Source of the DNA: Eledone cirrhosa
Lineage: Eukaryota
Assembly (NCBI GenBank): GCA_964016885.1
Contig: OZ024741.1
Span: 174,158,001 to 174,222,000, forward strand
DNA length: 64,000 nucleotides
Direction of reading: 5' to 3'
A program made the position numbers and the translations under genes. Within the stretch, counting starts at the first letter, position 1. Every line of letters starts with the position of its first letter. Below the pieces are notes generated by a model, which saw nothing but the letters and a program-made list of their open reading frames with translations, was not told the DNA's origin and did not search any database. Positions 31,201 through 60,535 of the stretch are shown here, one piece after another.

Positions 31201-31204
<4 letters not shown>

Positions 31205-31390: not shown

Positions 31391-31425
<35 letters not shown>

Positions 31426-31560
31426 TAGTTAAACAAGATTCAATGAGTATGTCAAAGAATGACTTTTACAGTAGATTGGAAGCACTCTACGGAAAATAAT
31501 TTTCCAGAGTTATTAATATTAAAATACAAATATTAATAAAATAGATGTTCTTTTGATCAA

Positions 31561-31621
31561 TTACATTTTATTATACATATTTCGGATGTACGACTGTACG
31601 TCCTCATCAGACAAAATATAA
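31561..31621 (-). ncRNA. Type I hammerhead ribozyme in a solo pseudo-LTR (~31421-32035)
   Basis: Minus strand ttatattttgt-CTGATGA-ggacgtac-agtc-gtacatcc-GAAA-tatgta-TA-ataaaatgtaa: 11-bp stem I with G-U pairs. Confidence 0.85.
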
Positions 31622-32048
31622 TGATACATGACATACCCTGAGATGTTAAATGGTTAAGATTTAATCAAGGTAGTGATTAACCCAAGAAAAATTTAACATT
31701 TATACCCTAATAATGAGAAAATGCAAAAATGTAATAAAATCAACAGAGAAAGTGCGAGTAAGAAAAATGTTGCTTAATGGAACAGTTAAATAGATATTAA
31801 GATGTATGATACTATAATTTTTGAATAAAGGGGGGTAATAAGCTGAAGGAGTTTTATTTTTGCCGAAAGTTAAACGGTTAATTTTGAAAATATTTAATGT
31901 ATGTACTATAGAGTGAAGGTTCGAGATATTGGCTATTTTTAAATTAAAAAAATTGCTGGTTATTTATATATTAGTTTTATAAATTCTATAAGTGTGTTAA
32001 CATTTCAAAGCTTCTGAATTTCATGTGGGTAACATTTATATATATATA

Positions 32049-35470
<3,422 letters not shown>

Positions 35471-35698
35471 ATTTTAATAAGATTTTCTCATAGAATAACT
35501 GCAAAATAGTTTTATAAAGAAATTTATAGTACCGGTTTTAGTCAATAAATATTTTGACTTCTTCATGCTACAGGAAATATGACAAAAAGTATATATATAT
35601 AATTAGTCACAACAGTTGTAACTAATTATACTTAACTCATCCTATGGGCTGAGTGCTCTATACTCTTGGATAATTATATGAAATTTGTACTACAGTAG

Positions 35699-35750
<52 letters not shown>

Positions 35751-35759
35751 ATGTATGTA

Positions 35760-36830
35760 AAACCGTCGTCATGTACCAATCTGCCCCTGGTAAGCAGTAC
35801 AGTGAACCAAATATCTATGTGTATGGTAAACGACTTGGAGTGGTTGATTAGTTTGTCTACCTGGGAAACACTGTCAATCGATACAGCAACATTGATAATG
35901 AAATCCCACTCAGGATTAGGAAAGCAAGTGATGCTTTCAGAAAGCTAGAAAGGCGACTCTGGGGTCGGCGAGACATATGCAAGAAGACAAATGTAAAGGT
36001 GTAAAAGGCATGTGTGCTCTCTTCTCTTCTTTATGCCTGCGAGACCTGGGTCACATATCAACACCACCTTAAGAAATTGGAGCGTTTTCATCAGATGTGT
36101 CTCAGACGGAACCATGGCGTTCACTGGAGGGACCACATCAGTGATGTCGAGATTTTGGAAAGCTCTCTGTGTGACAGTATAGGAGCTCTTGTGCTTAAGC
36201 AAAGACTCCGTTGGAGTGGTCACCTTGCCAGGATGAAGGATTCTAGAATACCAAAACAACTTTTTTATGGAGAGTTAGTTAAAGGAAAACGACCTCCACA
36301 TAAACCAAAACAGAGGTATAAGGATTCCTTGAAAACCTCTTTGAAAGACGCTAACATCTCTGCTGATACATGGGAAAATGTTGCTGCTGATCGTAATAAA
36401 TGGAGAAAGACTGTATATGAGGGGAAAGTTGCCTTTGAGGCATCTCGAATCGCATACGAGAAAGTAAAGCAGGATGTGAGAAAGGGCATTACTGTTGCAT
36501 TTCAGATGGCAAAGGTCCTCCTATGGCGCTGACATGCAGCGTCTGTACGAGACTCTGCCTAAGCAAAGCTGGACTCGAAAGTCATCTTCGCAGTCATAAA
36601 GTGAGACCAGTGATTGACTACCAGGCTGCTGTTGGAGATGTTACTCATCATGCTTGCCAAGTGGTAGAGAATGTAAATCAGCAGGAGGGCTCAAACGACA
36701 TGCAAAAGTACATGAACTTCAACCACAGACGACTATTCCCAGTGAATGTTTTGGTTGCCGACTCTGTGCAAGACATTTTAGATCATTGGCTGGGCTAAAA
36801 AGCCACATTCGATCGCAGCGCTGTTAATTG
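35760..36830 (+). mobile_element. RTE (BovB-like) LINE 3' fragment with three C2H2-like fingers
   Basis: FVYLG, LLYACETW, LERFHQMCLR, LRWSGHLARM..RIPKQLFYGEL..GKRP, followed by CxxC-x12-HxxxH repeats. Confidence 0.9.
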
Positions 36831-36834
36831 CTAT

Positions 36835-36960
<126 letters not shown>

Positions 36961-37060
36961 TAGATATGTTTATGTGTGTGTGTGTATATATATATATATA
37001 TGTGTATATTATTATTGTTGTTGTTGTTGTCATTATTATTGTTGTTATTATTATTATTAT

Positions 37061-37579
37061 TCTGAGTTCAAATCCCGCCGAGGTTAACTTTGCCTTTCAT
37101 CCTTACGGGGGTGATAAAATAAAGTACCAGTAATACACTGATAATTGCTGGCCTTGTGCCAAAAGTAGAAACAATTATTATTATTATGGTTTTTTTTTCT
37201 CGTGCAATGGCCATACTCGATAACGAGGGGGCAGCCAATTTGTATGTATGTATGATGATGTGATCTTTTCTTCTTTTCAGGTTATAGCTACTGTCGCTCA
37301 GAGAGTGGGATTGGCTCAGTGCACAGTCTTTCCTCACTTTAAAAAATATCTTCACGCACAGGCATTGCACGATAGAATTAATTAATAATTATTAATAATT
37401 GTTTCTACGTTAGGCACAAGGCCAGCAATTACCCAGTGCATCACTGGTACTTCATTTTATCGACCCCGTAAGGATGAAAGGCAAAGTTAACCTCGGCGGG
37501 ATTTGAACTCAGAATGGCAAGGGCCGTAACTCTATACGTCAAAGCATGGCGTCCGACCCTCTCCCAATACTGCCAATCC

Positions 37580-37582
<3 letters not shown>
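37061..37582. mobile_element. Inverted pair of SINE family B copies (37061-37175 +, 37400-37582 -) enclosing another repeat
   Basis: tctgagttcaaatcccgccgaggttaactttgcctttcatccttacgggg is present on both strands. Confidence 0.8.
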
Positions 37583-37626
<44 letters not shown>

Positions 37627-37936
37627 CTTAAAATGCAGTGGGAATACGAAGAAAGCAAGAAGAGGTGGGGGGGGGGGGGGGTTGCTCATCAGTTGTCTAC
37701 TGGGGGTCTAGGATATTTCTACGCTTTAAAGATAAGCTACCACTTCACTCCAGGGCATCAATAACTGGATAAGTTATTGGAAAAACGAAGGAAGGGGGGA
37801 AGGAAAGCAAAGGGGAAGAAAAGAGAAACAGTAACAAAACAGCGAAAAAAAACACAAACCAAGCAATGTGCGAGCAACTATACGTAGGAAATCTAAGACC
37901 ACTCGATAATAGAACTTAAGTTCAAGACCGAGTAAT

Positions 37937-37974
<38 letters not shown>

Positions 37975-38130
37975 GAGGAAAGACTGTGCACTGAGCCAAT
38001 CCCACTCTCTGAGCGACAGTAGCTATAACCTGAAAAGAAGAAAAGATCACATCATCATACATACATACAAATTGGCTGCCCCCTCGTTATCGAGTATGGC
38101 CATTGCACGAGAAAAAAAAACCATAATCAT
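37180..38130. repeat. Local inverted duplication (37180-37340 / 37971-38130)
   Basis: Near-identical ~160 bp including the junction with flanking (aat)n. Confidence 0.85.
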
Positions 38131-38131
38131 A

Positions 38132-38173
<42 letters not shown>

Positions 38174-38659
38174 TATGATGAAGATCATCATCATTTTAAC
38201 GTCTGCTTTCTCTGCTAGCAAGGGTTGGATAGGTCTACATAGACCAAGTCAGTACTGAAGTGGGACTGCTGATCTCCCAGAGCGGCCAGGGATCTGCATC
38301 TCGCTTATGTAAGGTTTCAAGTTCTACCGAGTGCACAGGAGAGGTTGTCATGTCTTTTACACAGCTGAGGGTCCTCCCAACCCTTTGTTTGGTCAGCGTT
38401 CTATGGTTGGATGCCCTTCCTAACACCAACCATTTTACAGTGTGTACTGGGTACATTTATCCTGTAGATCACCAACACTAGGGAACTTGTCATTTCCTTG
38501 ACACTACTGAAGGGTCCTCCCAACCCTTTTTTTGGTATGTTGACTGTTTAACTCTCTTTCTTTTTAGCATGACATTAATAAGACTTTATGTTAATGCATA
38601 TCCATGTTTGTTTTGTTTGCTTAATTCTTGTATTCTTAGTTTATATATATATATATATC

Positions 38660-39065
38660 AATATATACTACACCTCTCAAAGTCAATGACACACGACCGT
38701 GACTTCTGGCGTCACGCAGTAATACAGGGTACCCGACCTCCCATGGGTACATGCTGAAGCATATAAACAATATGCCCCCACTCCCCCCACCGCAAGGTGG
38801 TCGTGGAGGTGCCACGGCAAAAAAGCACCCAGCCCACACTGTAAAGTGGACGTGTAGGCGCCACGAAAAAGCACCCAGCACTCACTGTAAATGAGGTTGG
38901 TGTTAGGAAGGGCATCCAGCTGTAGAAATCAAGCCAGATCAGTTCCTGTATGAGCAAGGCATGGTCAGCCGACCAGACACTGCCCACAACAGGACAACCC
39001 GTCTAACCCATGCTAGCGTGGAAGAACGGACGTAAAACGGTGATGATGATGATGATGATGATGAT
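38660..39065 (+). mobile_element. RTE LINE 3' end with (gat)n tail
   Basis: MTHDRDFWRHAV C-terminus and 3' UTR matching 50603-50880 in reverse complement. Confidence 0.85.
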
Positions 39066-39262
39066 ATATATATATCAAAATGTAGTAACAGAGTTAGAAA
39101 CTTGTGTTAGTCCCTGTAATTCATGAGCTCAAAGAGTAGAGAATCCTAGGCTCTTCAAATACTATATGTATCTGTATATATATATATATATATAACCCAT
39201 GTTAGCGTGGAAGATGGACATTAAACGATGATGATGATGATGATGATGATGATATATATATA

Positions 39263-39577
39263 TATGGCTTTGTGGTTAGAGCATCATTCGGTTCATGATT
39301 GTAGGTTGTGAGTTCAATTCCTGGCGGCACGCTGTCCTTGAGCAAGGTACTTTATTTCACATTGCCCCAGTCCACTCAGCTGGTTAAAATGAGTTGTACC
39401 TGAAATTTGAAGGGCCAGCGTTGTCACATTCTGTGTCACACTGAATCTCTCTGAGAACTACATTGAAAGTACGTGTTTGTGGAATGCTCAGCCACTTGCA
39501 CGTTAATTTCAGGAACAGGCTGTTCTGTTGATCATATCAACAGGAATACTCATCGCCATAACCGACAGTGTGCCACT
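39263..39577 (+). mobile_element. tRNA-headed SINE, second body type
   Basis: A box tggctttgtgg, B box gagttcaattc, core gtccttgagcaagg; 3' part differs from family A. Confidence 0.75.
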
Positions 39578-39599
39578 ACTATGTATGTATGTGTGTATG

Positions 39600-39945
39600 T
39601 AGGACCCCTAGCCTTTGTCAGGGCATTTTTCTAGGAGAAGGCAACTCAGGAAACTGGGATAACTCCGATATAAAACCTGCGGCTCAGTAGTTACCGATGA
39701 TGTTGATCTTTTCTTCTTTTCGGGTTATAGCTACTGTCGCTCAGGGAGTGGGATTGGCTCAGTGCACAGTCTTTCCTCACTTTAAAAAATATCTTCAGGC
39801 ACAGGCATTGCACGATGGAATTAATTAATAATTATTAATAATGGTATATCGTGCAATGGCCATACTCGATAACGAGGGGGCAGCCATCATGTATGTATGT
39901 ATGTATGTATGTATGTATGTATGTATGTATGTATGTATGTATGAA
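39600..39945 (+). mobile_element. Non-autonomous repeat with (tgta)n tail, possibly RTE-derived
   Basis: ctaggagaaggcaactc resembles RTE 5' UTR motifs (recalled). The body matches 37200-37385. Confidence 0.5.
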
Positions 39946-40744
39946 TGTATGTGTGTAGGTATGTAGGTATATATGTATGTATGTAGGTATGTAGGTATAT
40001 ATGTATGTATGTAGGTATGTAGGTATATATGTATGTATGTACGTGCGTATGTATGTTTCAGTGATTGAAAAACATTTCTTCTCCAAAAGTTTTTTATTAT
40101 ATTGATATTATCTACTTGTTATTTGTATATTTGTCTTTGTATTTCCAATAGAACTTTCAGTCATCTTCATATCTACTTTTAGCTATTTTAGAAATTTTTT
40201 ATTTTTGTTCCTGTATTTATCTACAAACCTTGAAAATAAACTTGAACTCTTGACACAGGAAACGCCACCTAAATCTACACACATACACACACACCTCAGA
40301 ACAACAAAATGCCCTATGGGCCTTTATTCTGAATAGAAAAGGAACTTTCTATTTAAATGAGTAGAATTTTCTAGTAAATCGATTGAATCCTGATCTCTTG
40401 AACCTCACCTCCACCTTCACTACTCCACTTTCATAAATAACAGTTATATAAGAAGAGATTTTGAGAGAAAACTCTCATATGTTCTAACTGCCCACAGAAT
40501 ATAAGAACAAACTTTTTTAATATCTGATAAGATTGCTATACCAACCTAGTAATATTTGATAAAACTTAAATTAATTTAATGAAACAATTATAAGAATATT
40601 TATTCTGTCGAATTAAAGAAAAAAAAAGAATTGTTAAATATACAATATACTTCTGAGATTTTCCACTTTTACTTTTTACCCATAATCTTCGATTTGCATG
40701 GAACTTTACCCCCTTTTTCAACTATATATATATATATATATATA

Positions 40745-40940
40745 TAGGAACGAGTAGGACCCCGACGGCTGAGCTCAAGCCGTTTCGACGGCTAATTCTG
40801 TCCAGAATTAGCCTTCGAAACGGCTTGAGCTCAGCCGTCGGGGTCCTACTCATTCCTATTACCCACTCTACTACCCTAAGTATTGAGTACTTTGGTGCGT
40901 TATGGTCCACCTGGTTCCTTACCACATTTCCTCCGTTATA
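40745..40940 (+). mobile_element. Fold-back mini-element with a hammerhead 3' half (same family as 19850-19990)
   Basis: Arms 40745-40800 / 40803-40858. Reads cagaattagccttc-GAAA-cggc-ttgagctca-gccg-TC-ggggtcc; (TA)n flanks. Confidence 0.8.
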
Positions 40941-41107
40941 TATATATATATATATATAAACCCATGCAAGCGTGGAACACGGACGGTAAACGTTGATAAT
41001 GATGATGATGATGATGATATGCAAAAAGCAAACAGAACTAACAAAGCAAATGACACAGTACAATGAAGAAATATAGTTTTAGTTTTACACTTGATATAGT
41101 TGGAAAA

Positions 41108-41148
41108 GAGTCTGAACGTTTCAGGTGCTAGTCTTTCATCAGAAAATA
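41108..41148 (-). ncRNA. Degenerate hammerhead motif
   Basis: Minus strand CTGATGA-aagactagcacct-GAAA-cgt-TC, but stems I and II pair poorly. Confidence 0.3.
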
Positions 41149-42192
41149 GAATGAGAAATTAAAGAAGAAATTAGAAAGATTGAGAAGAGTGGGTAGTGGC
41201 AGAAACGGGGAAAAAAGATTCTAGAGAAAAACAGGTCTATTTGCGTTGCTATCTCTTGGAAAACTGTTGATGCTGGCATTTTGTTTAAGATGATCTTGAT
41301 TTAAAAGGTGGTGATCAAACACATTTAGCTGAAAAGGAGTGTGACAAACCTAAAGATATGTTATGTCGACAGAGTGGATAATCTTTTACTTTCCCTCATA
41401 TATATATATATATATATATTTGTTCCTGTGTGTATCCTTGTTGATAGAATGGATACACTAAATCCTTCGGTATCATAAGAGGTGACTAAAAGGGTTTGCA
41501 TTAGGAAGAGCATCCGACTGTTAACTGTTGCCTCAAAATGTCTCAGCCAACACTAACCAGCATGGAAAAGTGGACATAAAAGCAAAGTTGAAACAACTGT
41601 AACACTCATCATCAAAGCCAAGAGAAGTACATTTATTTCCCTTGACTTTTGAAGATAAAATCAGTTTTAGTAATGTAGACAGATACCTGAAGACATTTGA
41701 TTCAGAGTTTGATTGTGTAAAACTATTCCATGGAAATAGTAAACAGAGGTATTGTTGATTGAGTAAGGTGATGTGCAGAGAAATATGTAAATTTGACCTA
41801 AAGTTCATAAGTGGATAATTTAGCTTCACAGGTAATGATATTAAGAAATTCATTTTGCAACCACAAGGTTCTGAATTCAGTCAAATTATGCAGCCCCTTG
41901 GGAGAGTATCTTTTATATTTTCAGGTTGGCCAATTACTTGTGAGTTGAGTTTGGTAAACAGAAACTGCAGAAACCCACTGTGTTCCTGTTTTGTGGCATT
42001 GTCTCATAAGCTTCTTTCCAGCAGCTTGTTTTGGCCATTGTGTAACCTGGGCTCAATATGATCCAATCCCAATCTTGTGCATGAAATTGCATCACCCAGA
42101 GAGTGAATGGCAAGGAAGACAGATGCTGTTGTTCATTTCTCCCACGTGTTTGTTTTGTATTTTTTTTGTATGCAATTTTGCTATATGTGTAT

Positions 42193-42584
42193 GGAGGCAC
42201 ATGGCTTAGTGGTTAGAGCATTGGCCTTGCAATCGAAAGGTTGTGAGTTCAATTCTCAGACCGGGTGATGTGTTGTTTCCTTGAGCAAGACACTTTATTT
42301 CACATTGCTCCAGTTTACTCAGCTGTAGAAATGAGATAATGGGACTGGGGTCCCTATCATTCCACTGCAAAGTGGTCGTGGAGGTGCCACGGCAAAAAAG
42401 CACCCAGCCCACACTGTAAAGTGGACGTGTAGGCACCACAGAAAAAAAAGCACCCAGTACTCACTGTAAATGAGGTTGGTGTTAGGAAGGGCATCCAGCT
42501 GTAGAAATCAAGCCAGAATCAGTTCCCATCCCACCCTTGCAAGCAGGGAAAAGCGGACGTAAAATGATGTTGATGATGATGATG
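42193..42584 (+). mobile_element. Full-length tRNA-derived SINE (family A) with an RTE-derived 3' tail
   Basis: A box TGGCTTAGTGG (42202), B box GAGTTCAATTC (42245), core tccttgagcaagacacttt, tail shared with the RTE LINEs, (gat)n end. Confidence 0.92.
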
Positions 42585-45500
42585 TGTGTGTGTGTCTACA
42601 TTTATGTTCCTAATTACGTCTCATAGCTTAGTGGTTCGACAAAGAGACCAACCAAATAAGCACCAGAGTTGAAAAAAAAAGAATACTAGTGTCTATATGA
42701 TTGCCTAAACCAAGGCTGTACCCAAGCATGGCCACAGTTTAATGACCGAAACCAGTAAAAGAATAAATTAATATACCAATCCCCACAGTACAATACAATC
42801 TTCTACCATTTTCATTGGTTATGTTAAAACCCCTGTAAGCTGTATTAGTTCACATTGCTGTGTAAGTGGAGCTTTTATCAATAATTCTATCGGCATTATA
42901 AACATTCAGTCGATAAAGGAAAGGAATAAATATGGTCTTGCATTTTCTACCCTTCCCTCTTTTTTATATCTATCTCTGCTGCTGCTTTCATAAATTCACC
43001 ATGGATTTGATTTAACAAATTGGTTGAGTCCTGGGTGAAGCCTTGATAATATAAACGTTTTTCTGTGAACGTTTGATTATTATAGTTTTTTTTTGTTTGT
43101 TTGTTTTTTGTTTTGTTCTGTACATCAATGGAAAGTGAACTACTGCTTTGGTTATCAGATTAATCACACTATAATTGTCACATAAATACAACTTTGGCAG
43201 GTCACCTTGCCAAATGTGCAGCTTATTCAGAATTAACTGTAATTTTTCTTGTTCTTGTGTTCCTGGTTAACGATTGAGACTATAAGTATGTTTTTAGTTC
43301 CTTTTATCTGAATATATCTCCCAAATTCAAACAATCGACAAGCCCAGGGAGAGACTCTAATGATGCTAAGATAAAATATTTGTTTTCTCTTTGCATGTCT
43401 AAACCTTCAAGCTCAAAGCCTAGTTGATTTGACATTTCCCACTCTAATAACATTATATTCAGTGTAAGGAACTAATGCAGAGAAATACAGTTGATCAACA
43501 AAAGCTAGTATAGTAAATACTATACCTTGGCATCCAGCTACAACTTTGATTGGATCATTTGACATTAGGCAACAAATTGGTGCACTTGTTACGGGTGTTG
43601 GATAAAATATCTTGAGGCAATTGTTCTAGTCCTCTGCACTCGGAGTTCAAATCCCACAGGGGTCAACTTTGTCTTTTATTCTTTTGGGGTTGATAAAATA
43701 CTAATTCAAGATGCTTTTTGATATCTGTTCTGGCATTTTGCATTCTGAGTTTACATTCTGTCTAGGAATTCAAATTTGACCAATGGCAAGGACTAATCAC
43801 TCAATCATGGAACCACAACTGATTATTAAAGCTGATATAGATAGATGAGGATTGAGGCTATTTCCTATTGCAGTCAAATAATAATTTTGATAGTGAAGAT
43901 GATGAAGCTGGTGATGGATTTCAAAGGATTAATTCTGGAGAAGCAGAAGACCAATCTATCATTGCCGTAGAGTCAGAAATATGTATAAATAAATAAGAGT
44001 TTGTATTGTGAGTTATCTGAAGTTTATATAAACTCAGAATGTCAGTTTAATGATAAACTTAAAAAGGTCACTACATATATTATTGAACGCATGAAACAAA
44101 GCTGTTATCATTTACTGGATTAGTCAATGTATCAATGATAAATTAACCAAATGATAATCACATTCTAACTTAATGCACTTTATCAGAGTAAAGTATTTAA
44201 ATACAGATCCTGATGAATCTATATATAAATTTCTGCGATTCTGTTGCAACACGTAAAGGGAGAGGAGTAGTTTGACTATCTCATACTACTCCTCTGTCTT
44301 TATGTCTGCTGCCTGCATGAATATAGGTGTGTGTAAAAGGAAGGAAAGGGGTGGTGAAAAAACTACTACTCATACTACTTCCCTCTCTTTACAACAAAAA
44401 CAGAGTGTTGCTACCACTGTTGTTATAACTACCTTATACTACTCTTCCCTCTTTACATCTTATGTAAGAAATAATAGACGATCAATGGAGAAAATAAAAA
44501 TATTATAAACAAATTGTTTTCTTCTTCTGTGGTCGATTTTCCACATACACACACGCACACACATATACACATACACATCAGTGTATGAAAAATAGTTCTA
44601 GTATGAGAAAATAACCAAACATACAGTGCTTAGTTGTATTCTCTGTGGTCATTCAACCCACTAGACATAGCAGCCTAATCTCAAGTCACACTTTATTGTC
44701 TTAAATTGGAAGGACACATTGGATAAGATAGTTCTGCATATCACTAAAAACACTGGATGGTTATGGATGAATGCCTTTCACCATAGATTGCATGTATCAT
44801 TATATGATTAAAAAATTATTTTTGCAACTACATGGTTTGGAGCTTGATCTCACTCTGTAGAACCTTGTACATATCTCATCTAACATAGTCTCAAATTGAC
44901 TAATGCCATGTGAGTGAAATTTGGTAAATGGAAAATAATATGAAAGCACATTTATGTATGCATGTATAGTACATATATATGTTTGTAAATATATTTTGCC
45001 AATGTCAACTTGCAAAGGATGTTAACATAAATATATGAACAACAAGTATTGTAAAGCCATCTAATCTTCTAATGCAAAGGCTAGCTTTGCTGGCCTCCAT
45101 GATAAGCTTCTCCATCTTTAGCCATGTCTTTCTTGATCTTTTTCCATATTTATTTCCATCACTCTTCTCACCAAAGTACTTTCATCTTTCCTCAACACAT
45201 GACCTAACCATCTCATTTTAATTTTCTTCACAACATTCATCACTGGTTCTATTCCCATAACCAAACCTCTGAGCCATAGTCATAATAACTTCTCTAGTGT
45301 TGGTGATCTACATGACAAATACACCCAGAACTCTCTGGAAGGTTGAAGGACACCCAGCTGTAGAAAGCCTGCTAAACAAAGGGTTGAGAGGACTCATCAA
45401 CTCTGTCAAAGACAAGACAACTTCCATAGTGTTGATGCCACAATTAAATGTACTTTGTAGCATGTGGGATCATATGTTAGACTCCTGACCTGACATACAA

Positions 45501-45638
45501 TAGTTAGTCTGACTTCCGACTCTTCTGTGACAACAGATCCAACCTTTATTAGCAGGGAAAATGGATGCTAAATAATGATGATGATGATGATATATATTTG
45601 TGTGATGATATATATGTGTGTGTGTGTCTGTGTGTGTT

Positions 45639-45669
<31 letters not shown>

Positions 45670-47859: not shown

Positions 47860-48372
47860 ATTTACATTATTTAATGGATTCTGAAGAAATCAGTACAGAG
47901 GAAAATAATGGAACATCTTACTGTATTGATAGAAATGTTCGTAAATCAATTAAATAATCTAATGTAATTCAATCCTGGTTATTTTATTCATTTATATATG
48001 CTCTGTGATATTGAAAACTACTGTGATTGGAAATTTACTAATTGGATTAAACTCTGAACTGTCTTTTACCCATCTTACTGTAGACTATAAAATCACATTT
48101 GAGTTTTGAATTATTCTTTGCCTTATATGGTTGTGTTATCATCTTATCTAAACTATTTTATATATGATGATGATGATAATGATGATAATTATATACATTT
48201 ATTTAGAGAGAGAGAGATAGAGAAAGAGAGAGAGAGAGAGGATGTGTTTACATTTGTCTATATATAGACTGCTGGCTAAAATCTATAGATATAGTGTATA
48301 GCATTGAAACAACACACCACATCAGTAATTTATTTTGATATAGCCATTAATACTTTAACCTATACAGGGATA

Positions 48373-50601
48373 ATCATCATCATCATCAACATCATCATTT
48401 TATATCCATTGCATGGATTGGATGGGTTTTTTTCAGTACAGCATCTCTGCATTTGTTGCATTCCTTTGTCATCTCCACAGAGCCTCGGAAATTTTAGATC
48501 AGCTCTCACCACTTCCATCCAGGTCTTCCTTGTTCTTCCTCTACTATGGCTTCCTTGCACTGGGATTACTTGGCATTCTTCACCTAGCGATCATCATCCG
48601 TGCACATCCTATGTCCATACTAATACAGTCTCTTCTCCTGCACACTACATTTGATTCCTTTTATAACCAGTTTCTCTCTCAGTTCATCCATGTTTTGTCA
48701 TTCTCGCACATAAACATTGCACACCCACCTTAGCATGCTTGCCTGATTTCTCTCCAGCCTTTGCATTCACAGCCCATGTCTCACTACCATGCAGTTTGCC
48801 CTTCACACACAGGCATCATACAGCTGACCTTTTGTTCGTAAGGAGAAACCTTTTGTAGTCAACAGAGATAGCAGTTTCTTAAACTTTGTTTATACTGTCC
48901 TTATTCTAGCTACTATGCTCTCAAAGCACCTTCTAAGTATATCATATAGGTAGCAGAAGCTATCAACCACTTCTATGGATCCTTCCTGAGATTGGAAAAG
49001 GTTTATATTATTCATTTTATAATTATTATTGGTGTTCTTGCTATTAATTGATCCTGAACACATCTGCTGCATAGAAACTCTTCCCTCCCTGTTAGTCTAC
49101 CTGTTATCTCACTACATCTCTTGTGTACCCAAGATTTGCATTGTGTGTATCATATAGAGTTTATGCCTACTCCTTTTCTACATATCAAACAAGGTCACTT
49201 CCCTGATTGGATTAGTGCCCTATTTTCTTTCCTACTTCTTAACATTTTGGTTTTTGCTAAGTTTACTCTCAGCCATTTTGGTTCTAAGTTCTGTTATCAC
49301 AGCCAGAATTTATTCTCTTGTTCTTCGACTGATTCAACTATGAAAACCAGATCATTGGCATACAGAAGTTCCCATGTGCCACCAGTCTTAAACTCTTCTG
49401 TTATGGCCCGGAGACCTACAATAAACAGATGTGGGCTAAGAACTGAATCCTGATGCACTCCTACCTGTATCTTGACTTCCTCACTAAATTCATTTTACTT
49501 ATAATTCCTCTGTGCACGGCTTGCACTGCTCTTACAAGTCACTATTCTGCACCTAGTTTCCGTGAGGACCACCAGATGACAGGTCAAGGCACTCTGTCAA
49601 AGGCCTTTACTAGATCAATAAAAGCTAAATATAGCTGCTTATTCTTGGCTAGGAACTTCTCTTGCAGCTGTCTCACTAGGAAGAGTGTATTTGTAGAAGT
49701 CCTCCCAGGCATATAACTGAACTGCATCCCATCTAATCTGACTCTTTACTTAATTAGCTTTTTTATCATTTTCATAACTTGGTCCATTAGTTTTATCCCT
49801 CTGTAGTTGCTCCTTTATAGATCACTACCTTTTCCCTTGTAGCAATTTTTTTATTGTACTGTTGAACCAGTCATTGAGTATGACTTCATACTCTATTACC
49901 TGATTGACTATACTGGTTAGTAGTTCAGCTCCTACTTCTGATGCTTTTAGCATCTCAGTGACTATCTATGACCATCCCACAACTTTACCATTCTTCATCT
50001 CTCTGATCGCTTCTTTCACTCTATAATTGTTGATTTCAAAAGCTGGTTCCTGTCTTGGGTACCAGCCTCAAAGCCTCTTTCTTTTGAGCATCAGTGATGC
50101 TAAGTGCACCAGTGTCATTTCGAACAGACTTTTCCCCAACAATATTCTGATTTACATGCTGCTTTAATATCAGAACATCTCACATCACTGATCCTCACTT
50201 TGCAAGACATTCGCTAATGTTACAGGTCTTTCTGTGTTACGTAAACTAGTCATCTAGCTTCTCACTTAGATAACTGGTACTGTTTTCTGCTACCTTCATT
50301 TTTCCAGTCTTTTCACACATGTCTCTTGGCCTTAATAGCTCTGTCCACTGTGCTATTCCACCACCAGGTCACCTGCTGTTTGGCTGGTGGTTTGCTCCAA
50401 CCACAAGTCTCATCAGTAGTTCACAATAGGTTGACACGTAAGAATTTCCAATTGTTCTCTATGTCATATGTATCTAACTCATTTCCCCTCTCATCAAATG
50501 CATCCCATAGGACCTTTCTAAACCTGTATTTCATAGAAAGGCCCTTTAGCTTCCATACTCTCCATCTCCATATTTTCCTGCATATCTTGTCTGTCTTCTG
50601 A
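48373..50601 (-). mobile_element. Old, heavily mutated RTE LINE (PHD family)
   Basis: Frameshifted RT motifs (IDLVKAFDRVP, VHQDSVLSP, ELLYAND, VDSFCYL) and a (gat)n tail. Confidence 0.85.
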
Positions 50602-50602
50602 T

Positions 50603-51999
50603 TTGGCTTGATTTCTACAGCCGGATGCCCTTCCTAACACCAACCTCATTTACAGTGAGTGCTGGGTGCATTTTCGTGGCGCCTACACGTCCACTTTACA
50701 GTGTGGGCTGGGTGCTTTTTTGCCGTGGCACCTCCACAACCACCTTGCAGTGGGAGGGTGTGGGGGCATATTGTCTATATGCTTCAGATTGTATCCATGG
50801 GAGGTTGGGTACTCTGTATTACTGCGTGATGCCAGAGGTCACGGTCGTGTGTCATCACCTTTGAGAGGTGTAATTGGGTAAGGTCGCCTTTTATCACCTC
50901 ATCCCAGGTAATCTTGGGTCTCCCCACTTCGTGGTTTCCATCGACTTCCAGTGCTCTGCACCTTTTTATGCAGCTGTCATCCTTCATACGCATCACATGT
51001 CCATACCAACGCATCCGCCTCTCCTGCACACAGCATTTGATTCCTCTTATGCTCAGTCTCTATATTCAATTCATTTATGCTTTGTCATTCGTGTATATTA
51101 CTATTACACATCCATCGGAGCATGCAGGCTTCGTTTCTCTCTAATCTACGTAAGTCTTCCACCTTCAGCGCCCAGGTCTCACTACCATCTAACATTGCTG
51201 TTCGGATACACGCATCATACAGTCTGCCTTTCGTTTTGAGGGAGAAGCGTTTTGTAGCTAGCAGTGGTAGTAGTTCCCTGAACTTCTTCCATCCCGTTCT
51301 TACCCTAGTTATTGTACTTTCTGAACACCCACCTCCGCTGCTAATTCGGTCACCTAGGTAGCAGAAGCTGTCTAATGTCTCTACAGAGCCCTCCCAGAGA
51401 TTGGTGGTACTTGTTTCCTGTGGCTGTTTGCTGCTTGCTATCCCAGTACGGCTGCTGCATGTGAAGCCTACATTCTTAATTAAGCTGCCTGAGATCCCGC
51501 TACATCTCTTGTGTACCCATTGTTTGCATTTGGGGCAGAGAATGGAGTTCCTACCTACACCTTTCCTACATACTGAGCAAGGCCATTTCCCTGAGGGGAT
51601 CTGGGTTCTGTTTTCTCGTCTACTTACAAGGACCTTAGTCTTTGTCATGTTGACTTTGAGACCCTTTCTTTCTAGTCCCTGCTTCCAAGTTTGGAATTTC
51701 TTCTCTAGTTCTACCATAGATTCAGCTATAAGTGCGAGGTCATTAGCATACAGGAGTTCCCATGGGCATCCGGTCTTAAACTCCTCCGTTATTGCCTGCA
51801 GGATTATGATGAACAGGAGAGGGCTAAGAACAGAGCCCTGGTGGACCCCAACCTGTACGCTAAATCCCTCGCTATACTCATTGCTAATCCTAACTTTGCT
51901 GACTGCTCCCCTATACATGGTTTGTACAGCTTTCACAAGCCATTCATCTAATCCTAGTTTTCTAAGAGCCCACCAGATTGCAGCACGTGGAACTCTGTC
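50603..51999 (-). mobile_element. RTE LINE 3' fragment (PHD family)
   Basis: ORF 51085-52062 has GVHQGSVLSPLLF, LLYAND, the PHD finger, FCYLG and GSETW; ORF 50784-51029 has RMRWYGHVMRM. Confidence 0.93.
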
Positions 52000-52000
52000 A

Positions 52001-52519
52001 TATATAATAAAATGTGGAGAGGAAGCACACGAGTTAGGATATATATATATATATGAAAACAAGGAGAAAGAGACGATTATTAAGAAGAAAAATATATTTT
52101 TTTCCTTTTTTGTTTCTCTCTCTTTTTTTTCTGGGTTAGAAAATGATTAAAACGAAATGTTTTACTTTGTGTGAAGTGTTAAGGTATTAGTTGATTTATT
52201 TATTATTTAACAATGGTATTTATTTATCTATTTATATATTTAATTATTGTCTATTACCGGTTTCAACATTTTTATGCATTATCAAATAATAGTGAAATGT
52301 ATTAGACAATAATTAAATATATAAATAGATAAATAAATGCCATTGTTAAATAATAAATAAATCAACTAATACCTCAACACTTCACACAAAGTAAAACATT
52401 TCGTTTTAATCAATTTCTAACCCAGAAAAAAAAGAGAGAGAAAAAAAAAAGGAAAAAAATATATTTTTCTTCCTAATAATCGTCTTTCTCCCTGTTTTCA
52501 TATATATATATATATATAT
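52001..52519. repeat. Fold-back with ~215-bp inverted arms (52040-52253 / 52293-52519) and a hammerhead-like loop
   Basis: Arms read directly. The loop on the minus strand reads ttgataa-tgcat-aaaa-atgtt-GAAA-ccgg-TA-atag; tcgtgtgcttcc at 52021-52032. Confidence 0.85.
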
Positions 52520-52541
52520 CTAATATTTATAAAACCATATT

Positions 52542-52606
52542 TATTTCATTATACATATTTCAAGGACACCAAGTTAAATTATGGTGTGCTTTCATCAGAT
52601 AAAATA
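52542..52606 (-). ncRNA. Type I hammerhead ribozyme
   Basis: Minus strand tattttat-CTGATGA-aagcacacca-taatttaact-tggtgtcctt-GAAA-tatgta-TA-atgaaata. Confidence 0.82.
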
Positions 52607-52666
52607 TAATATAGATCAGTTTTATAAATAAATATTGACATTTTCCATTTGTTAATATATCGTATA

Positions 52667-53651
52667 CTAGCAGTAAAGCCCGGCGTTGCTCGGGGTCGCT
52701 CAGTAGCTGTGTTAAAGTTACAATGTTAAGTTTCTTTCTTGGCTTAAAAACTGTAGTGTCTACTGTGCAGACTTGCATGTGGTGTTTTTGATTAATATTC
52801 CCTCAACCAACAATATGCCTTATGAAGTTAAGAAAACATAACGATAACCCGAATGTTATAACAAAAGAGGATGCTCGGGATAGAAACTGCACTGGTTATT
52901 TATTAACAAAGATCGAAAATGTAAACACTGCAATGCAGAGAAAAACATTAGCGTAACCAAATTATCAGTTATGTCTGTCTGCACGCCTATATCACCTCTC
53001 TGCACGACTGTCTGTCTGCACGCCTATATCACCTCTCTGCACGACTGTCTGTCTGCACGCCTATATCACCTCTCTGCACGACTGTCTGTCTGCACGCCTA
53101 TATCACCTCTCTGCACGACTATCTGTCTGCACGCGTATATCACCTCTCTGCACGACTGTCTGTCTGCACGACTGTCTGTCTGCACGCCTAACGACGAAAT
53201 ATTTGCTTGTTTTACGTAGTCTTTAAATAGACTTGTTTTCAAGTAAAAATATTGTTTTAAAATGCTTTTAAATGGAAATGAAGCAAAACGGAAGCTTAGT
53301 GTTCGAACTGATGAATTTTGCAGGTCAATATTTTGCTGGCTCAACAACTGTTCGTGTATTGTGTTAATGTCATTTTAAACGCTGAGAAAGCCAGCGTAAT
53401 TTTTTACGTAAGACGCTCAATGTAAACAGAACAAAGGGAAATAACTGATAACTTACGCTCAAAAATCGATACATTATATTCGATTTCGTAACATAGGGTG
53501 GGTCAATTTAAAATATTTTTTTTCCGATGTCTTCGCTAGGGCTCAATGTACAAGTATAGCAATTTCGGTGCAATTCCGTGAGAGATTCTAAGAGGAGATG
53601 TGTGCCAAAAATCGATAGACAGACAGACAACCACAGTTTTATATATATAGA
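52667..53651 (-). mobile_element. Non-autonomous Helitron with an internal 37-bp minisatellite (52972-53190)
   Basis: Minus strand starts A|TCTATATATATAAAA and ends cccgagcaacgccggg-ctttactg-CTAG|T. Confidence 0.8.
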
Positions 53652-53653
53652 TA

Positions 53654-54843
53654 TCTAATATATATTTGTAAAATGGGTGGTGGTTGAAATTCAGATGTGC
53701 ACGGTTAAATGGTAGTAGACGTGGTCGGACTGACATGAAAATTTACACACCTATGTAAAAAGTGCCAAGGAAGCAAATAGACGAGGTTTCAAATCTCTAA
53801 CTTGAAAAATGTGGTCCCTGGAGCCCCAAAGCTATCGCGTTCGGTGAGTTATTTCCCCCTGTTCTAATACTTTTGTCTTATTTACAATTTCATACAAATA
53901 CAGCAGTAAAATCCCGTAGTAAGTCCTAAAAAAATGGTTAGATACACCATGACGCACCGATCATCACGATGGAGTTGAAAAGCAGACTCAGAACATGGCG
54001 TTGTGTGGGGGTGGCTCGCAGCCCAATGTTCCAGGGGGAACAAAAGAAGAAGAATAAGGTGTGAGCTGGAGTCCTATCAAATATGCAGGTTGTGTCTTAA
54101 ATTGAAGGTTTAGTAGAAACAATTCATGTATAGTTTTGTACTTTTCTTTTTGTCATTCATATATAAACAAATCTACTAATATTCTATTTAAAATAATCGA
54201 ATGATTTCCAGCCCCAGAGTTTAAGAATGATGTAAATAAAATTGAAAACGAAAATGACAGAGGTTATTAAAATAGTAAAAGTAAATAGTGAAAATTTAGG
54301 CCAGTACATACGTATGCCCCGATGGACATACACATACATACGCACACACAAATACATACATACACACCCACCCACACATACACACACACACACAAACGCA
54401 CGCGCGTATGTATAAACCTTATGCATTTCTACAGTATTTTCACCAAACTTAAGACATAGGTTACTTATGTACTCCGATTAGTCATGGGCACTGTCATTTT
54501 TCCAGATATTGATTATAGGGCCCCCCGGCAGATAACCACTTTAACCACTTCCTTAGAGTCGGCTGAATCACTGCAGTGCAATGCAACAAAACGTCATAAC
54601 TTCTGGAGTTCGCAACCGATTTTCACAAAACTTGACACATGGGCTACGTTTGTCCTACAGATTAATGGGAACTCTCAGAATTGGCACTTATTGGGTAGGG
54701 GACCCCTGGGGGCAGGAACCCCCTTTTGGAAAAAGCCGATGATTTTGTAAAAGTATAGTTTTCGAAGCAGCACTGAAGTATTGACATAAATGGTATACAC
54801 AACTGCTATTTAATATCCGAGCAACGCCGGGTACCTCTGCTAG
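53654..54843 (+). mobile_element. Non-autonomous Helitron (composite)
   Basis: Starts A|TCTAATATATA and ends ccgagcaacgccggg-tacctctg-CTAG|T. The body recurs at 61499-63700. Confidence 0.8.
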
Positions 54844-54857
54844 TATATATATATATA

Positions 54858-57710
54858 TTAAAATAACAGTGAAACAAAAATAATCAATCTGTGAACGCAA
54901 AAGTAAATATTTCGAAAAACGTTGCAACCGAAGGAAGACAAGAAGACGATATTTTGGTCCGTGGAGACGTTCCCTGGCAATGAACGGGAAAAAAACGAAG
55001 ATAATACGTCATTATTTGGAGCGCGGAGAACAATTACACGCAAAGACAAAACCACGTTTATGGTATAAATGAAGTCGTGGAATAATATTCTATTTAGGTG
55101 GTTCGTGGAGACGTTCCCTGGCAATGAACGGGGGATACAAGCGAAGATAATAGTCATTATGTGTATCGATGAGAACAATTACGCGCAAAGACAAAACCAC
55201 GTTTATGGTATAAATGAAGTCGTAGACTAAAATTCTATTTAGGAAACCGAATGATTCTCGGCTTCAGAGTTAAGAATAATGTAAAAAATTACAGAGGTTA
55301 TTGAAATCAACAATAAATAAATACATACATGCACGCATCCATATACGTACACACACATGCATACGCGAACACACCCGCCATAGGTTTGCATATACAAGCA
55401 CGTACACAAAAACACGCGCACACATATAAAAACCTGCGCAACACCTGTACCCGCACACATACGAACATATACACCAAATACACATAAAAATATATTAAAT
55501 ATATATATATATGTGTGTATGCGTGTATACATATAATTATATAAACGTATATAAATATATGCACATAAATACGTATATAACGTGCACACACATACCTACA
55601 GGTAAAAACACATATGTTAACAAAACGTACGTCAACCAAAACACAAAGTGAGCATATAAACAGAACCTGCATACTTGCAAACTCGCATAGACACACAAAC
55701 GCAAAATACTCGTATACACAACCATATACACATGTACCAGTATATATAATATAATATATACACCTATAACAAATACAAACAAATATACGTACGAGAAAGT
55801 ATACGTACCTTCACAAAACATACAGGTAATATATACTTACCTGCACAAATAAGTAATGGTATAAACATAACATATACTTAGCTACCACATCAAGACGTAA
55901 CTTATCCGCGTATTGTTCGTACTATCCGTTAGGGTATAATATGGGGCTGTAATGCAGGAAAGTTTTATGCAATTTATGTTTACAAGCCGAAATTGCCTCA
56001 GATTTTTTGTTTAAGATGTGGTCTTTGGCGTAGAGTATTTCCAGGTCTTCAGCGGCGCAGAGGTCACATGGTCTTTTATTTTCGTTATACGATCTAGCCT
56101 TAACTAGGATCTCCCAGTGTAACCTATATTGGGTGTGGTTGTCTTTTAGACTCCAGATATAAGCTGAAAGTGATGTCATATTCCTTCTTAAAGGGTTAAG
56201 AAAAGAATGGGTATGCATGTAAAGACGCTGCTTGAATCTATTGGCGGTTAACTCTATGTAGGCCCTACGAGACGTGGGTGTTTCAACATTACATTTGTAG
56301 ACAATGTTACTGGAGAGGCATTTCCCGGATAGGGGGCAGTCAACCCGATTCCTACAATTACAGTTAGTACTAGCTACAGGGTTGCACGTGTTCCTACGGT
56401 TAGGTAATTTAGCTAAATTTGAAGCAGTGATGTTATGTGCAAGGTTAGGAGTCGTAGAGTAAGAGAATTTAATGTTTTTTCTATTAAAAATTTTATTATA
56501 TTTATGCGCTGGTGGGAAATGCTTGTTAATAAGGGAGAGAAAGATCTTAGCTAATGGTGTGGCCACCTCCATATTATATGGTGGGTTATACCATATAATG
56601 CGTCGGGATTTATTTTTCCTAGGTCTATGCTCATACTCGGTATATGCTACCTTATCGACAAATCCACTACGAGCAAGAGCTTCATTGTAATATGTGGAAT
56701 GGTCGGTGAAAATATGCTCGTTTGTAGATAGACGGGAAAGCCTAAAAGAAACGTTTCTTACCAGGTTCTTGGTTATGCTGGCAGGATGGTTAGAATGCTT
56801 ACTTATCTAATTAAGCGTATCATTCGGCTTTCTATACGGGTAGTGCAAGCCATTCGACAAATTGAGGGTAACGTCGAGGTAATTAACGACCGAGAGCAGG
56901 GCCGGATTTAGATTTGATGAAGCCCTAAGCTATTTGAGATAATGAGGCCCTTTATATGTCCAGATGTCCTATGTCAGTGACAAATTATCGCTGTTTTTTG
57001 TGTGGGAGCCCTAAGCTATAGTTTGTTTAGCTTATACGTAAATCCCACTCTGACCGAGAGGTTGGCCTCAACCTGTATGGAGAGGTTGAAGCCTTTAAAG
57101 AAGGCAGTAAGTTCTTTTCTGAACCTGTCGCAAGCGCGTGGGCCGCACTTTGTCATCGTCAAAAGACCGTCATCATGGTACAAACCACCGCCCACGTTGA
57201 GGATTTCTTCCTTGATAGAGAAAATAAGGAAAAGGCCGATAAGATCAGTAACCTCCGCAGAATCGCGTCGAATGGGGTAGTATTAGATTTTTTAATCCAA
57301 ATAGAGTCGTCTAAATTAATCACCGACTTACGGGTATTGAGGATGACATCAACTTCGAAATCCTTAACCACCGTGAGCGTTTTAGCGAAATTAATAGCTC
57401 TTAGAAGAAGTGGTAAAGTGATGGAGGAGGAGTAATTATTGATATCGAATTGGATAAAACGGCAATGTTCCTTGTTGCATATGCCGTTGAACCAATCAAT
57501 CACCGCGAAAGAATTGTTCCACAGTGCAAGAGGGGCCAAACTTCTAATTTCAGGTATAATTCTATCTAAAATCCTTTTACTAAGTCTACCTAAATCGGAC
57601 TTCGTAGGGTTAATAAGCCGAATAGAGGGGTTGTTCGGGAAATTGGATTTGTGATCCTTCAGGGTAAAGTGGGGAGAAATAGGGTCCAGAGGTTCAGTCC
57701 GGTCCAGGAT
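54858..57710 (-). mobile_element. Penelope-like element 3 (Naiad type, same family as element 2), 5'-truncated
   Basis: Colinear with 32049-34740. ORF 55922-56572 is the GIY-YIG part; extra partial ~140-bp repeat unit; MITE insertion. Confidence 0.93.
56897..57052 (+). mobile_element. hAT-type MITE (156 bp)
   Basis: 8-bp TSD accgagag (56889-56896, 57053-57060). TIRs cagggccggattta / taaatcccactctg. The empty site is visible at 34067-34074. Confidence 0.9.
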
Positions 57711-60535
57711 ATAAATGGAAACTATATTTATAAAACCATATTTATTCTATTATATATATTTCAAGGGTACCAAAACTTTGGTATGCACTCATCAGATAAA
57801 ATACAAAGTTTGTTTTATAAATAGTGACATACCCAGGAATCAGACCTTAACGGTTTAAGTTCCGTTTGGATAGTGAAAGGAAAGAGGGAAAAGGGGAAGA
57901 AAAAAAAACATATATTTCAAATTATTTTGATGAATATGCAAATGAAGTTGAAGCATAGGGCTGAAAAAATCGTTATTTTTAGATGCTAGGTAGATTTAAA
58001 TAATTATTAGGATATATATATGTAGGAAGAAGAAAGAGAAGCTTCTATTAATAGTATTACAGTGTACCAAAGTTTTGGTACCCTTGAAATATATATAATA
58101 GAATAAATATGCTTTTATAAATATGATTCCCATTTATTAATATCATTGATATTATACTCCAGAAAACTTGTCGAGTGCTTCGAATCTGTTATAAATATAT
58201 TTGTTGAATTACCAACAAATTAAATATCCCTTTGCTTATAAATAGCTCCTTTAAACTATAACAGATTGCAAAAAATTAATAATGGAATTCTTTAGGATTT
58301 CTTCTTTAAAGGATGTACACTTACCTAAAAATAAGGAATATGTAAAACAACTCATAGAAAAATCAGACTCCTTCATAAGAAGACTTAGATGGTGCGCTTT
58401 CCATTTTGATAAGAAATCGGAAAACAAAATAAATAAATCCAAGTATAATTTTGATCTTATTTTCAAATCAAGGAAAAATCCACCTTGCAACAAACTACTA
58501 GCCGAATTTGAAAATGAAATAATCTCCATCATACAGAACGTTAAATTCAAAAGGAACCAATTTATTGGCCAGGAGTACCTCAAAGGCCTCAAAAACAAAA
58601 TAGACAATCTAGAAAAAACAAAGAAGATCCTTGTAAAATCGCACAAAACCAATAATCTATATGGTATTGAAAAGGACGCGTATAATATCCTAATACTGAA
58701 GGAACTCAGAAAAAACTATAAAAGGACATCAAATGAAGATCTTTCAACCCTAAATAGAGAAGCTTCGGAAATTATTTATAAACTAGGCATTCAAAATAAG
58801 ACAGAACCCTTTATACATAGAAAACCGAAGATTAATTTGAAGGACCATAAAAGAAATTTTGAAGTAGAACTACCAGTCAGACTCATCGCACCATCTAAAT
58901 CTGACTTAGGCATAATTAGCAAACATATACTAGATAGGATTATTCCAGTACTTAAAGAAAAATCACACCTTAAACTATGGAACGGTACTAATGAAGTAAT
59001 AGATTGGTTTACAGACATAAAATTAAAACATAAGAAAAAATTTATTCAAATGGATATTGCAAATTACTACTCCTCTATTACTCCTAGCTTACTTAATAAG
59101 GCACTTATCTACGCTTCTAAACATACAGACTTATCTAGTGATGAAATGAATATCATTCTAACAGCATGTAAAACCCTAATAGAATTTAATAACCATCTCT
59201 GGACAAGTGCTGATAGACAAAACAATTTTGATATTACTATGGGATCATCTGATTCAGCTCAAGTAACAGACCTCGTTGGATTATTTATTATTAATGTACT
59301 GCATAGAAACATGCCAGAGATGACCGGAGGTTTATATCGTGACGATATGTTACTTTTAATCGAAAAACATAGCAATAGTGAAATTGATAGGAAAAAGAAA
59401 TCCATCATACAGTTTTTCAACAACTACAACCTTAAATTATAAATCGAGAATAATTATAAAATCGTTAACTTCTTAGATGTAACTTTAAACCTTATCTCAG
59501 GTCTTTACTATCCTTTCCATTAAATTAATGAAAATCTAAATTACGTAAGCTTCAACTCTAATCATCCTAGAAATATAAAAAATACTATTGTCAATAGTAT
59601 CCAGCAACGAATTTCACGCATCTTTGCTAATAAAAATATTTTTGATAATAAGGCAGAATATTACAATTAGGCTTTACATAGATCTGGATACTCGAATAAA
59701 ATTAAATACTTAGATAACAATAACATACTAAATCATCCTAAAATTCACTATAATAATAATAAGCAATTCAACTTAAATAGTAAACCAAACTAAAAAACTA
59801 GAACTAGAAATATTATTTGGTACTCTCCCCCATTCTCATTAGGTGTTAAAACACCTGTAGCAAAACTATTTTTCAAAGCACTGGATAAGTATTTTCCTAA
59901 AGCCCACAGATACCACTCTATTTTTAACAGACACACTATCAAACTATCTTACTCTACTACTATGGACATAGCACAAAATATAAATAGAATTAATAATAGA
60001 AACTTAAATTTAAACCCTAACCAAACAAACCAAGATAACAATAATAATATTTCTAATAACAATATTCATACTAATAATAATAGTACCGTTTCTAATAACA
60101 ACAACTCCCTAAAATGTAACTGTAGAATTGAATCAAACTGCCCTTTACAAAACAGTTGCTTAGATAAAAACTTAATATATAAATGCACAGTAAAAACTAG
60201 AGACAAAATATTTAACTATATAGGTGCCACAAAATTCAAAGAACGCTGAAATAATCACAAACATACATTTAATAGGTCCGATAAAACATCTTCCACATCA
60301 TTTTCACATCTAATTTGGTATTTAAAGGACAATAATATAGACTATTCAATATCTTGAGGAACGATTTCGAAAGCACCCTCATACCGAAATATGGCCCTCT
60401 CAAGAATCTGTCATTTGTGTATCGAGGAATTTTTTTTATATACTTAACTGTCAAAATTCTATTAATTTAAAAAATGAATTATTCAGTTCTTGCAGACATC
60501 GCCAAAGAACCACTTTCCGAAGTATTTTTAATCTA
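57711..60535 (+). mobile_element. Penelope-like element 4 (Naiad type), near full-length, with in-frame stops
   Basis: ORF 58282-59442 has IRRLRW, LKDHK..P.RLIAPSKS..G.ISK, MDIANYYSSI, MGSSDSAQVTDLVG, GLYRDD. It continues through NFLDVTL, SNHP, WYSPPF, CNCR..CPL..C..IYKC..YIGAT and SSCRH. An inverted pseudo-LTR lies upstream. Confidence 0.93.
57743..57803 (-). ncRNA. Type I hammerhead ribozyme in the inverted pseudo-LTR of element 4
   Basis: Minus strand tattttat-CTGATGA-gtgcataccaa-agtt-ttggtaccctt-GAAA-tatata-TA-atagaata. A partial + strand copy lies at 58061-58137. Confidence 0.78.

Follow-up and report, generated by a model that had tools for sequence, protein, structure and literature searches.

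The Hydra clade of Penelope-like elements (PLEs) with a C-terminal endonuclease (EN) was described by Craig et al. (2021; PMC8557442) and includes Hydra-1_Obim from Octopus bimaculoides. Its defining motifs are RW-K/R, DKT, CxCX5C, CxxC and CxH together with a C-terminal GIY-YIG domain, and Naiads carry an N-terminal EN and are without canonical hammerheads (PMC8557442). Hammerhead ribozymes in the pseudo-long terminal repeats (pLTRs) of Hydra elements and palindromic hammerheads acting as dimers, a design found in metazoan PLEs (PMC4209133; PMC6765202), are already published. The role of the PLE hammerhead has been stated to be unclear (PMC8557442), and one in vitro study found cleavage dispensable (PMC11167929); it is for this question that the present findings matter. 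Here we analyse a 64,000-nucleotide stretch of the Eledone cirrhosa assembly GCA_964016885.1 (contig OZ024741.1, positions 174,158,001 to 174,222,000, forward strand; hereafter the window, numbered from its first letter). Three related hammerheads in one retroelement family, as noted in a preliminary description of the window, are ordinary. The analysis makes it probable that they are decayed type I hammerheads of Hydra pLTRs, that their fold is kept across families and that the predicted self-cleavage is likely only as a pair.

The motif TATTTTRT-CTGATGA...GAAA-TATRTA-TA-ATRRAAT was confirmed at all three sites of the preliminary description (31561, 52542 and 57743). All three copies lie on the minus strand, a point absent from that description, with cores at 31580-31610, 52558-52598 and 57759-57795.

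31564..31618, minus strand: hammerhead 1 (family g); stem I 31618-31611 with 31571-31564, core from 31610
31603-31584, minus strand: stem II of hammerhead 1, with C·A at position 4; stem III palindromic, predicted cut after 31572
52542..52606, minus strand: hammerhead 2 (family b); C·C mismatch at position 4 of stem II, cleavage predicted after 52550
57743..57803, minus strand: hammerhead 3 (family c); C·C and two private mismatches in stem II, predicted cut after 57751

The copies share a layout of 8-bp stem I, CUGAUGA, a long stem II, GAAA and the octamer AUAURUAU. Each has the type I core (CUGANGA, GAAA and UH with A15.1-U16.1; H17 is A, and the predicted cut follows A17); stem I is the open stem, and stems I and II pair and covary across families. 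Stem I pairs over 8 bp in every copy and the A/G differences are tolerated as G-U pairs, as had been proposed. The companion proposal, that stem II differs yet still pairs, stands in the main; pairing is imperfect, however (7/8, 9/10 and 8/11 positions), with position 4 mismatched in all three copies and the two extra mismatches of the 57743 copy lacking from its own family consensus.

Within a monomer, stem III comprises only 2 bp and closing it costs 2.8-3.5 kcal/mol, which does not give a stable monomer; the paired octamers of two copies form an 8-bp helix. Per unit, the dimer energy is -9.9, -11.8 and -5.3 kcal/mol for the three copies against -4.1, -6.0 and +1.0 kcal/mol for the closed monomer, making the double hammerhead 5.8-6.3 kcal/mol per unit more stable, although these figures leave out the cost of looping out 3.8 kb. 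Genome-wide, the centre of loop III is TA or TG in 78,095 matches, TT or TC in 509 and something else in 2,625. A hand count of the first 100 of this last group gave 29 CG, 15 GT, 9 AT and 1 GC centres, and stem II is distinctive for each of the recurrent centres CG, GT and AT. All centres seen at the level of families (TA, TG, CG, GT, AT) are self-complementary, as in a dimer design.

The motif is abundant. A strict pattern matched 43,090 times in the 3.0-Gb genome and its reversed form not once; the relaxed pattern gave the 78,095 matches just mentioned against 25 in the control, and the loose core alone occurs five times in the window where 1.64 are expected. A search of the three motifs against Rfam gave no hammerhead model at gathering score or at E<=10. 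The roughly 78,000 motifs missed by Rfam form a deep natural set from which structural needs outside the core may be read.

The preliminary description had claimed covariation among the three copies themselves. That claim fails for the trio, which barely covaries; since its stem I shows only one-sided A/G changes, other families were gathered, using patterns in which stem I was unconstrained or was required to have another base. By stem II signature, 228 of 329 distinct matches were placed in 20 families (101 were unplaced), and a 21st was added from fetched loci (L numbers below); families k, u, t, h and o are based on 2-4 copies each. Purine-pyrimidine swaps were also sought at the first position of stem I; the 271 matches, against 93 in the control, were mostly noise, and their loci (L191-L220) were dropped except for three or four.

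At stem I positions 1-4, 57 of 60 cells are paired over 15 distinct arm types and all four Watson-Crick pair types occur with pairing retained; one of the three misses, in family h, stems from a search that favoured mutated copies. Permuting the arms leaves 37.2 +/- 2.9 paired cells (0 of 100,000 permutations reach 57), and when the register is slid 17-30 of 60 cells remain paired. In a 14-row MAFFT alignment that includes the three window copies, 97.6% of 168 cells are paired and 10 of 12 pairs are altered on both sides, and the covariation score is 0.83, against 0.35 when shuffled and at most 0.16 when slid; like the permutation, the shuffle ignores relatedness. Compensating pair changes between families are found in stem I, stem II and the base of stem III, and the proteins of the compared families are 40-75% identical. 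Selection on structure across diverged lineages, as had been suggested, is supported through the genome-wide comparison of families only, and the lineages are not Naiads.

The elements that carry the three hammerheads are as follows.

31422..31823, minus strand: 5'-truncated remnant of a Hydra pLTR with hammerhead 1; (TA)n end about 150 nt past the cut site, 5' limit approximate
52523..52641, minus strand: remnant of about 120 nt with hammerhead 2; both distal-helix arms inside, (TA)n end
57711..58063, minus strand: inverted 5'-truncated pLTR copy with hammerhead 3, joined to the 5' end of element B
58064..61497, plus strand: element B, a decayed Hydra PLE; 5' half-hammerhead at 58065-58137, open reading frame (ORF) from 58255 to about 60540

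The first 73 nt of element B repeat the 3' part of the hammerhead motif. Its ORF is open for 395 aa before stops and frameshifts set in, encodes a reverse transcriptase (RT) followed by a C-terminal GIY-YIG region and has decayed motifs (RWC, HKT); the 3' untranslated region (UTR) is cut short by another repeat, and the 3' end was not found in the rest of the window or the next 10 kb. No family was matched in a Pfam search of five Hydra ORF pieces. A protein search led to relatives with open frames of about 740-750 aa (intact Hydra ORFs, 742-753 aa), and 20 places with such frames were fetched for their hammerhead context. Hammerheads on the same strand occur on both sides of the ORF in L123, L128, L129, L131, L134, L136 and L137, with L126 alike, spaced about 3.7-3.9 kb apart in families a-c; they thus occupy the pLTR position on both sides of an RT-EN ORF, as dimeric PLE hammerheads do. 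The L123 protein has RWR, DKT, YRDD, CxCX5C (CNCRDRSKC), YVG, CxxC (CDLC) and CxH (CRH).

Motif reading also gives the single ORF with RT and C-terminal GIY-YIG of the Hydra clade, and insertion is into (TA)n; the length 'generally' below 3 kb is exceeded, at about 3.7-3.9 kb in families a-c and about 3.25 kb in a further family, A. The remnant with hammerhead 1 has a longer 'tail' end, and its relatives L403 and L406 continue into a Hydra ORF. In 2 of 25 loci picked by this tail the family enters a Hydra ORF that is 49-66% identical to L123; the family of hammerhead 2 precedes Hydra ORFs in L107, L111 and L120, and a family with a C-G stem I likewise continues into one. In a protein tree built from the ORFs of this genome only, families e, i and A sit on long branches, and no order of events was drawn from the tree. 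Judged by its predicted protein, the host of the three hammerheads is a Hydra-clade PLE and not a Naiad, because it has a C-terminal GIY-YIG, RWR, DKT, CxCX5C, CxxC and CxH.

We propose that the transcript of a lone hammerhead would stay uncut, because a single hammerhead should be unable to close its 2-bp stem III, and that an AATAAA near the cut site could then serve to make mRNA. In a tandem read-through transcript with two copies, the loop III octamers would pair as an 8-bp helix and the RNA would be cut to unit length, probably aided by the protein of the element. For reverse transcription, an internal start is envisaged at either of two sites, both downstream of an uncut hammerhead. Protein-assisted cleavage and internal initiation at two sites have a precedent in a PLE from the anole (PMC11167929). 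Several points weigh against this proposal, beyond the relatedness that the controls ignore and the looping cost that the energies omit. In the anole PLE, insertion in vitro did not depend on cleavage, and no RNA reads ended at the cut site (PMC11167929). Among the first 100 'other' loop III centres, 46 are non-complementary, being scattered one-step changes in known families that we read as decay. Families r-u are not tied to Hydra elements, the ORFs near family t being 24-31% identical and partly on the opposite strand. Finally, most published Hydra 3' flanks, of which 20 nt are shown, lack AATAAA (PMC8557442), and in family A the AATAAA stands at the very end of the copy, while its more than 20,000 copies with an altered core imply that catalysis may be optional in Hydra elements.

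Three features go beyond the published descriptions found: a C·C mismatch in stem II, an AATAAA next to the hammerhead and the fixed U4A of family A. Of 21 family consensuses, 16 have C·C at position 4 of stem II, with positions 1-3 and 5-6 covarying around it; among 143 copies gathered with stem II left free, 127 show C·C there and 3 a pair. This mismatch is not visible in the published Hydra hammerhead rows (PMC8557442), and a literature search, in which surveys of palindromic hammerheads and their supplements were only partly covered, gave no report of a C-C mismatch in hammerhead stem II. We read the fixed C·C as a candidate site of docking or of protein binding. In 20 of 22 families an AATAAA or ATTAAA lies no more than 32 nt from the cut site, compared with 5.4 +/- 1.9 families in shuffled sequence (11 of 13 compared with 2.7 +/- 1.3 with one row for each larger lineage); one family of 22 has it in the 5' arm. 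Its position relative to the cut varies from -1 to +23, spanning the cut site in families e-h. No report of a coupling of AATAAA to the PLE ribozyme was found in the literature search, which covered PLE surveys and their supplements only partly. In most families the (TA)n copy ends lie 48-56 nt past the predicted cut site, and otherwise about 150 nt past it. By eye, an ACTC-hairpin-GAGT stem was seen just past the first end (window 31490-31520, minus strand) and a GCTC...GAGC stem just past the second (window 58155-58180, plus strand); L403, L436 and L439 show them also.

Family A, a young sister family, is represented in the window by two elements.

32042..35262, minus strand: family A Hydra PLE; inverted 5' copy of its own 3' end at 34778-35262, broken ORF at 33103-34781
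32066..32116, minus strand: hammerhead-like motif of family A; A at core position 4, stem I AGTTT/AAACT, 5-bp stem III
35188..35238, plus strand: second copy of the U4A motif, inside the inverted arm
54870..57710, minus strand: second family A element, lacking both ends; it borders on the hammerhead 3 arm at 57710/57711

At its cut site the motif has U, and its distal helix measures 8 bp. Genome-wide, A4 is present in 20,285 of 20,507 matches and another base in 222. The 15 long ORFs of the family (645-713 aa) have a mean identity of 97.7%, and intact 713-aa ORFs are among L379-L401; A4 is found in both pLTRs, and neither a canonical core nor a canonical second hammerhead was found inside the elements. 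C3/G8, G5, A6, G12 and A13 are retained. In a mutational scan of a type III hammerhead, CUGA-turn mutations had low activity (PMC9901934), and U4C is known from a viroid (PMC3088659); the literature search, covering hammerhead surveys and supplements only in part, returned no report of U4A. The genome offers a natural comparison, with intact canonical dimer-type elements beside a young family with a fixed uridine-turn substitution. A small fold-back remnant of a family A end lies at window 26518-26703, with part of an inverted hammerhead and the tail between (TA)n runs. The 3' UTR of the family contains a tandem unit of about 141-145 bp (window 32194-32478, 34827-35109 and 54955-55243), which is also present in a separate inverted-repeat element (62099-62363 and 63010-63218).

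Family A makes plausible the main rival to our proposal, in which the fold is kept mainly to bind or position the RT-EN, with reverse transcription starting about 50 nt downstream and cleavage weak or dispensable. The steady distance from cut site to genomic end in most families fits such a function, as do the conservation of the non-canonical C·C, the youth and abundance of the U4A family and, in the anole PLE, the lack of effect of catalytic mutants on insertion in vitro (PMC11167929). Against this rival, the catalytic core and the self-complementary loop III recur in 21 families with diverged stems, and even family A retains C3/G8, G5, A6, G12 and A13; the invariance of the core across families is partly built in because cores were part of the search patterns. 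We hold this alternative to be possible but doubtful. More speculative still, and rather unlikely as a whole, is an extension of the cleavage model to a copy-counting switch tied to polyadenylation, in which one copy would remain uncut and yield an AATAAA mRNA while two would pair by their loops III and be cut through the AATAAA or just upstream of it to yield a tail-less unit RNA. In this extension the C·C would be a new docking or protein-binding element, and family A would either have an active U4A core or have been amplified to 20,000 copies after losing catalysis, with the fold retained.

The preliminary description had also pointed to a distal helix beyond stem I in two of the copies and had suggested that the extended stem provides tertiary contacts. 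The 12-bp arms do exist (52524-52535 with 52619-52630, and 57725-57736 with 57812-57823). With the first five pairs removed, native arms were compared with dinucleotide shuffles in 22 families: the helix beats the shuffles in families a-d (z of -2.1 to -4.4), z falls below -1.5 in 8 of 22 (a-d, o, p, u and family A) and the mean z is -1.06. It is absent in families e-h, to which the 31561 copy belongs (z of +0.2 to +1.1), and in j, r and t; the window copies themselves score +0.3, -1.5 and -2.3. In families a-d the 3' arm is almost invariant and no double change occurs at family level, the recurrent changes of the 5' arm being A-to-G, compatible with G-U pairs, or one T-to-C that gives a C·A break. 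L074 has changes on both sides beside the helix, in a single copy and too little to count. On sequence comparison, then, the distal helix is a clade-specific extension, real in one clade and probably unneeded for the fold, and selection for its pairing is unsupported.

A monomeric hammerhead stabilized by docking of a long distal stem I on stem II would account for the families in which the helix exceeds its shuffles and for the A-to-G changes that keep G-U pairs, and the C·C lies near the position at which loop II begins in canonical hammerheads. Such a monomer is nonetheless improbable: the stem III of a monomer cannot close, the helix is restricted to some families and is lacking around 31561, its changes are one-sided with a C·A break in one subfamily, and the palindrome TTTATAAA stands within both distal arms, so that their complementarity can come from the repetition of one motif. 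The suggestion of tertiary contacts is unsupported.

A much weaker case can be made that AT-rich repeats resemble one another through common descent alone, their structure never having been under selection. Identity between the 52542 and 57743 copies is indeed 80% for the motif and 95% for the 3' flank, and within families the core diverges by 3.3% and 2.6% against 2.0-7.2% in the flanks (copies picked by tail). As the core decays about as fast as its flanks, the decay of genomic copies is neutral, and selection acted on active lineages and not on these three relics. Descent alone is contradicted by the four Watson-Crick pair types kept in stem I positions 1-4 and by the strong covariation between families whose proteins have diverged, and we regard it as very improbable. 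That the motifs belong to Naiad elements, as they were first labelled, has next to no probability, since the EN is C-terminal, DKT stands in place of DKA, RWR and CxCX5C are present, the hammerhead core is canonical and nothing in this analysis favours Naiads, (TA)n targeting being common to both groups.

Other motifs and elements were seen in passing. A near-perfect fold-back palindrome at window 31201-31319 has another hammerhead-type end, with CTGATGA at 31259-31281, and its family recurs genome-wide with GT at the centre of loop III. A degenerate minimal hammerhead of a different family lies at window 41119-41142 (minus strand), its core followed by GAAACGTT, with a relative in L042. At window ~21040-21140 (plus strand) there is the 3' half of a family j hammerhead with AATAAA and a (TA)n end, the 5' core being lost. 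In families a-h, GGGTAYGTCA is conserved 30-55 nt upstream of the core (window ~31630-31640, minus strand) and resembles a 5' splice site; pairing of the upstream GGGTATGT with stem II was rejected, as no covariation was seen by eye, and so was its use as a splice donor, as no conserved acceptor was seen. In L251-L252 (G000:C2:359517000-359536800), five or more units of about 3.85 kb form an array; every unit has a hammerhead (stem III ACATGTGT) together with distant PLE-like ORF pieces, which lie on both strands. Part of an RT from a further Penelope-like lineage (KTHK and LPMG motifs; Pfam RVT_1) occupies window 1460-2503 (minus strand), and RT fragments of the long interspersed nuclear element type, in which the RT core is followed by an inserted PHD finger (Pfam RVT_1, PHD), are found at 18031-19671 and 51085-52146 (both minus strand).

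Compared with the published Hydra PLEs (PMC8557442), the elements described here agree in the RT-GIY-YIG order, the (TA)n target, the inverted 5'-truncated copies and the type I hammerhead near the 3' end. They differ in units of about 3.8 kb instead of less than 3 kb, in a stem III that is an 8-nt even palindrome (ATATRTAT) instead of 3-4 bp with a short loop, and in a stem II of 7-12 bp with a fixed C·C; the hammerhead of Hydra-1_Obim differs in sequence from the families found here. With the metazoan PLE hammerheads of Cervera and De la Pena (2014; PMC4209133) they share type I motifs in pLTRs, a long helix II, a palindromic helix III, action as a dimer, many families per genome, compensatory changes and opposite-strand pairs 100-700 bp apart. 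Stem I is at least 8 bp in the clade of the three copies, in contrast to the published 4-5 bp, and a symmetric C·C takes the place of the helix II bulge, with AATAAA adjacent (PMC4209133). The Poseidon PLE PAc from Anolis carolinensis (Frangieh et al., 2024; PMC11167929) likewise has two internal starts downstream that define a 'tail' and an AT-rich target; it belongs to a different clade, the ends here lie about 50 and about 150 nt past the cut, in both cases before the start codon is reached, and their tail measures about 100 nt as against 30-40 nt in PAc. In the mammalian Clec2 3' UTR hammerhead (PMC6765202) the cut site is also upstream of a polyadenylation signal, which cleavage thereby removes. 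The Clec2 ribozyme is discontinuous and belongs to a host gene, whereas the hammerheads described here belong to a retrotransposon in which use of the signal is inferred only.

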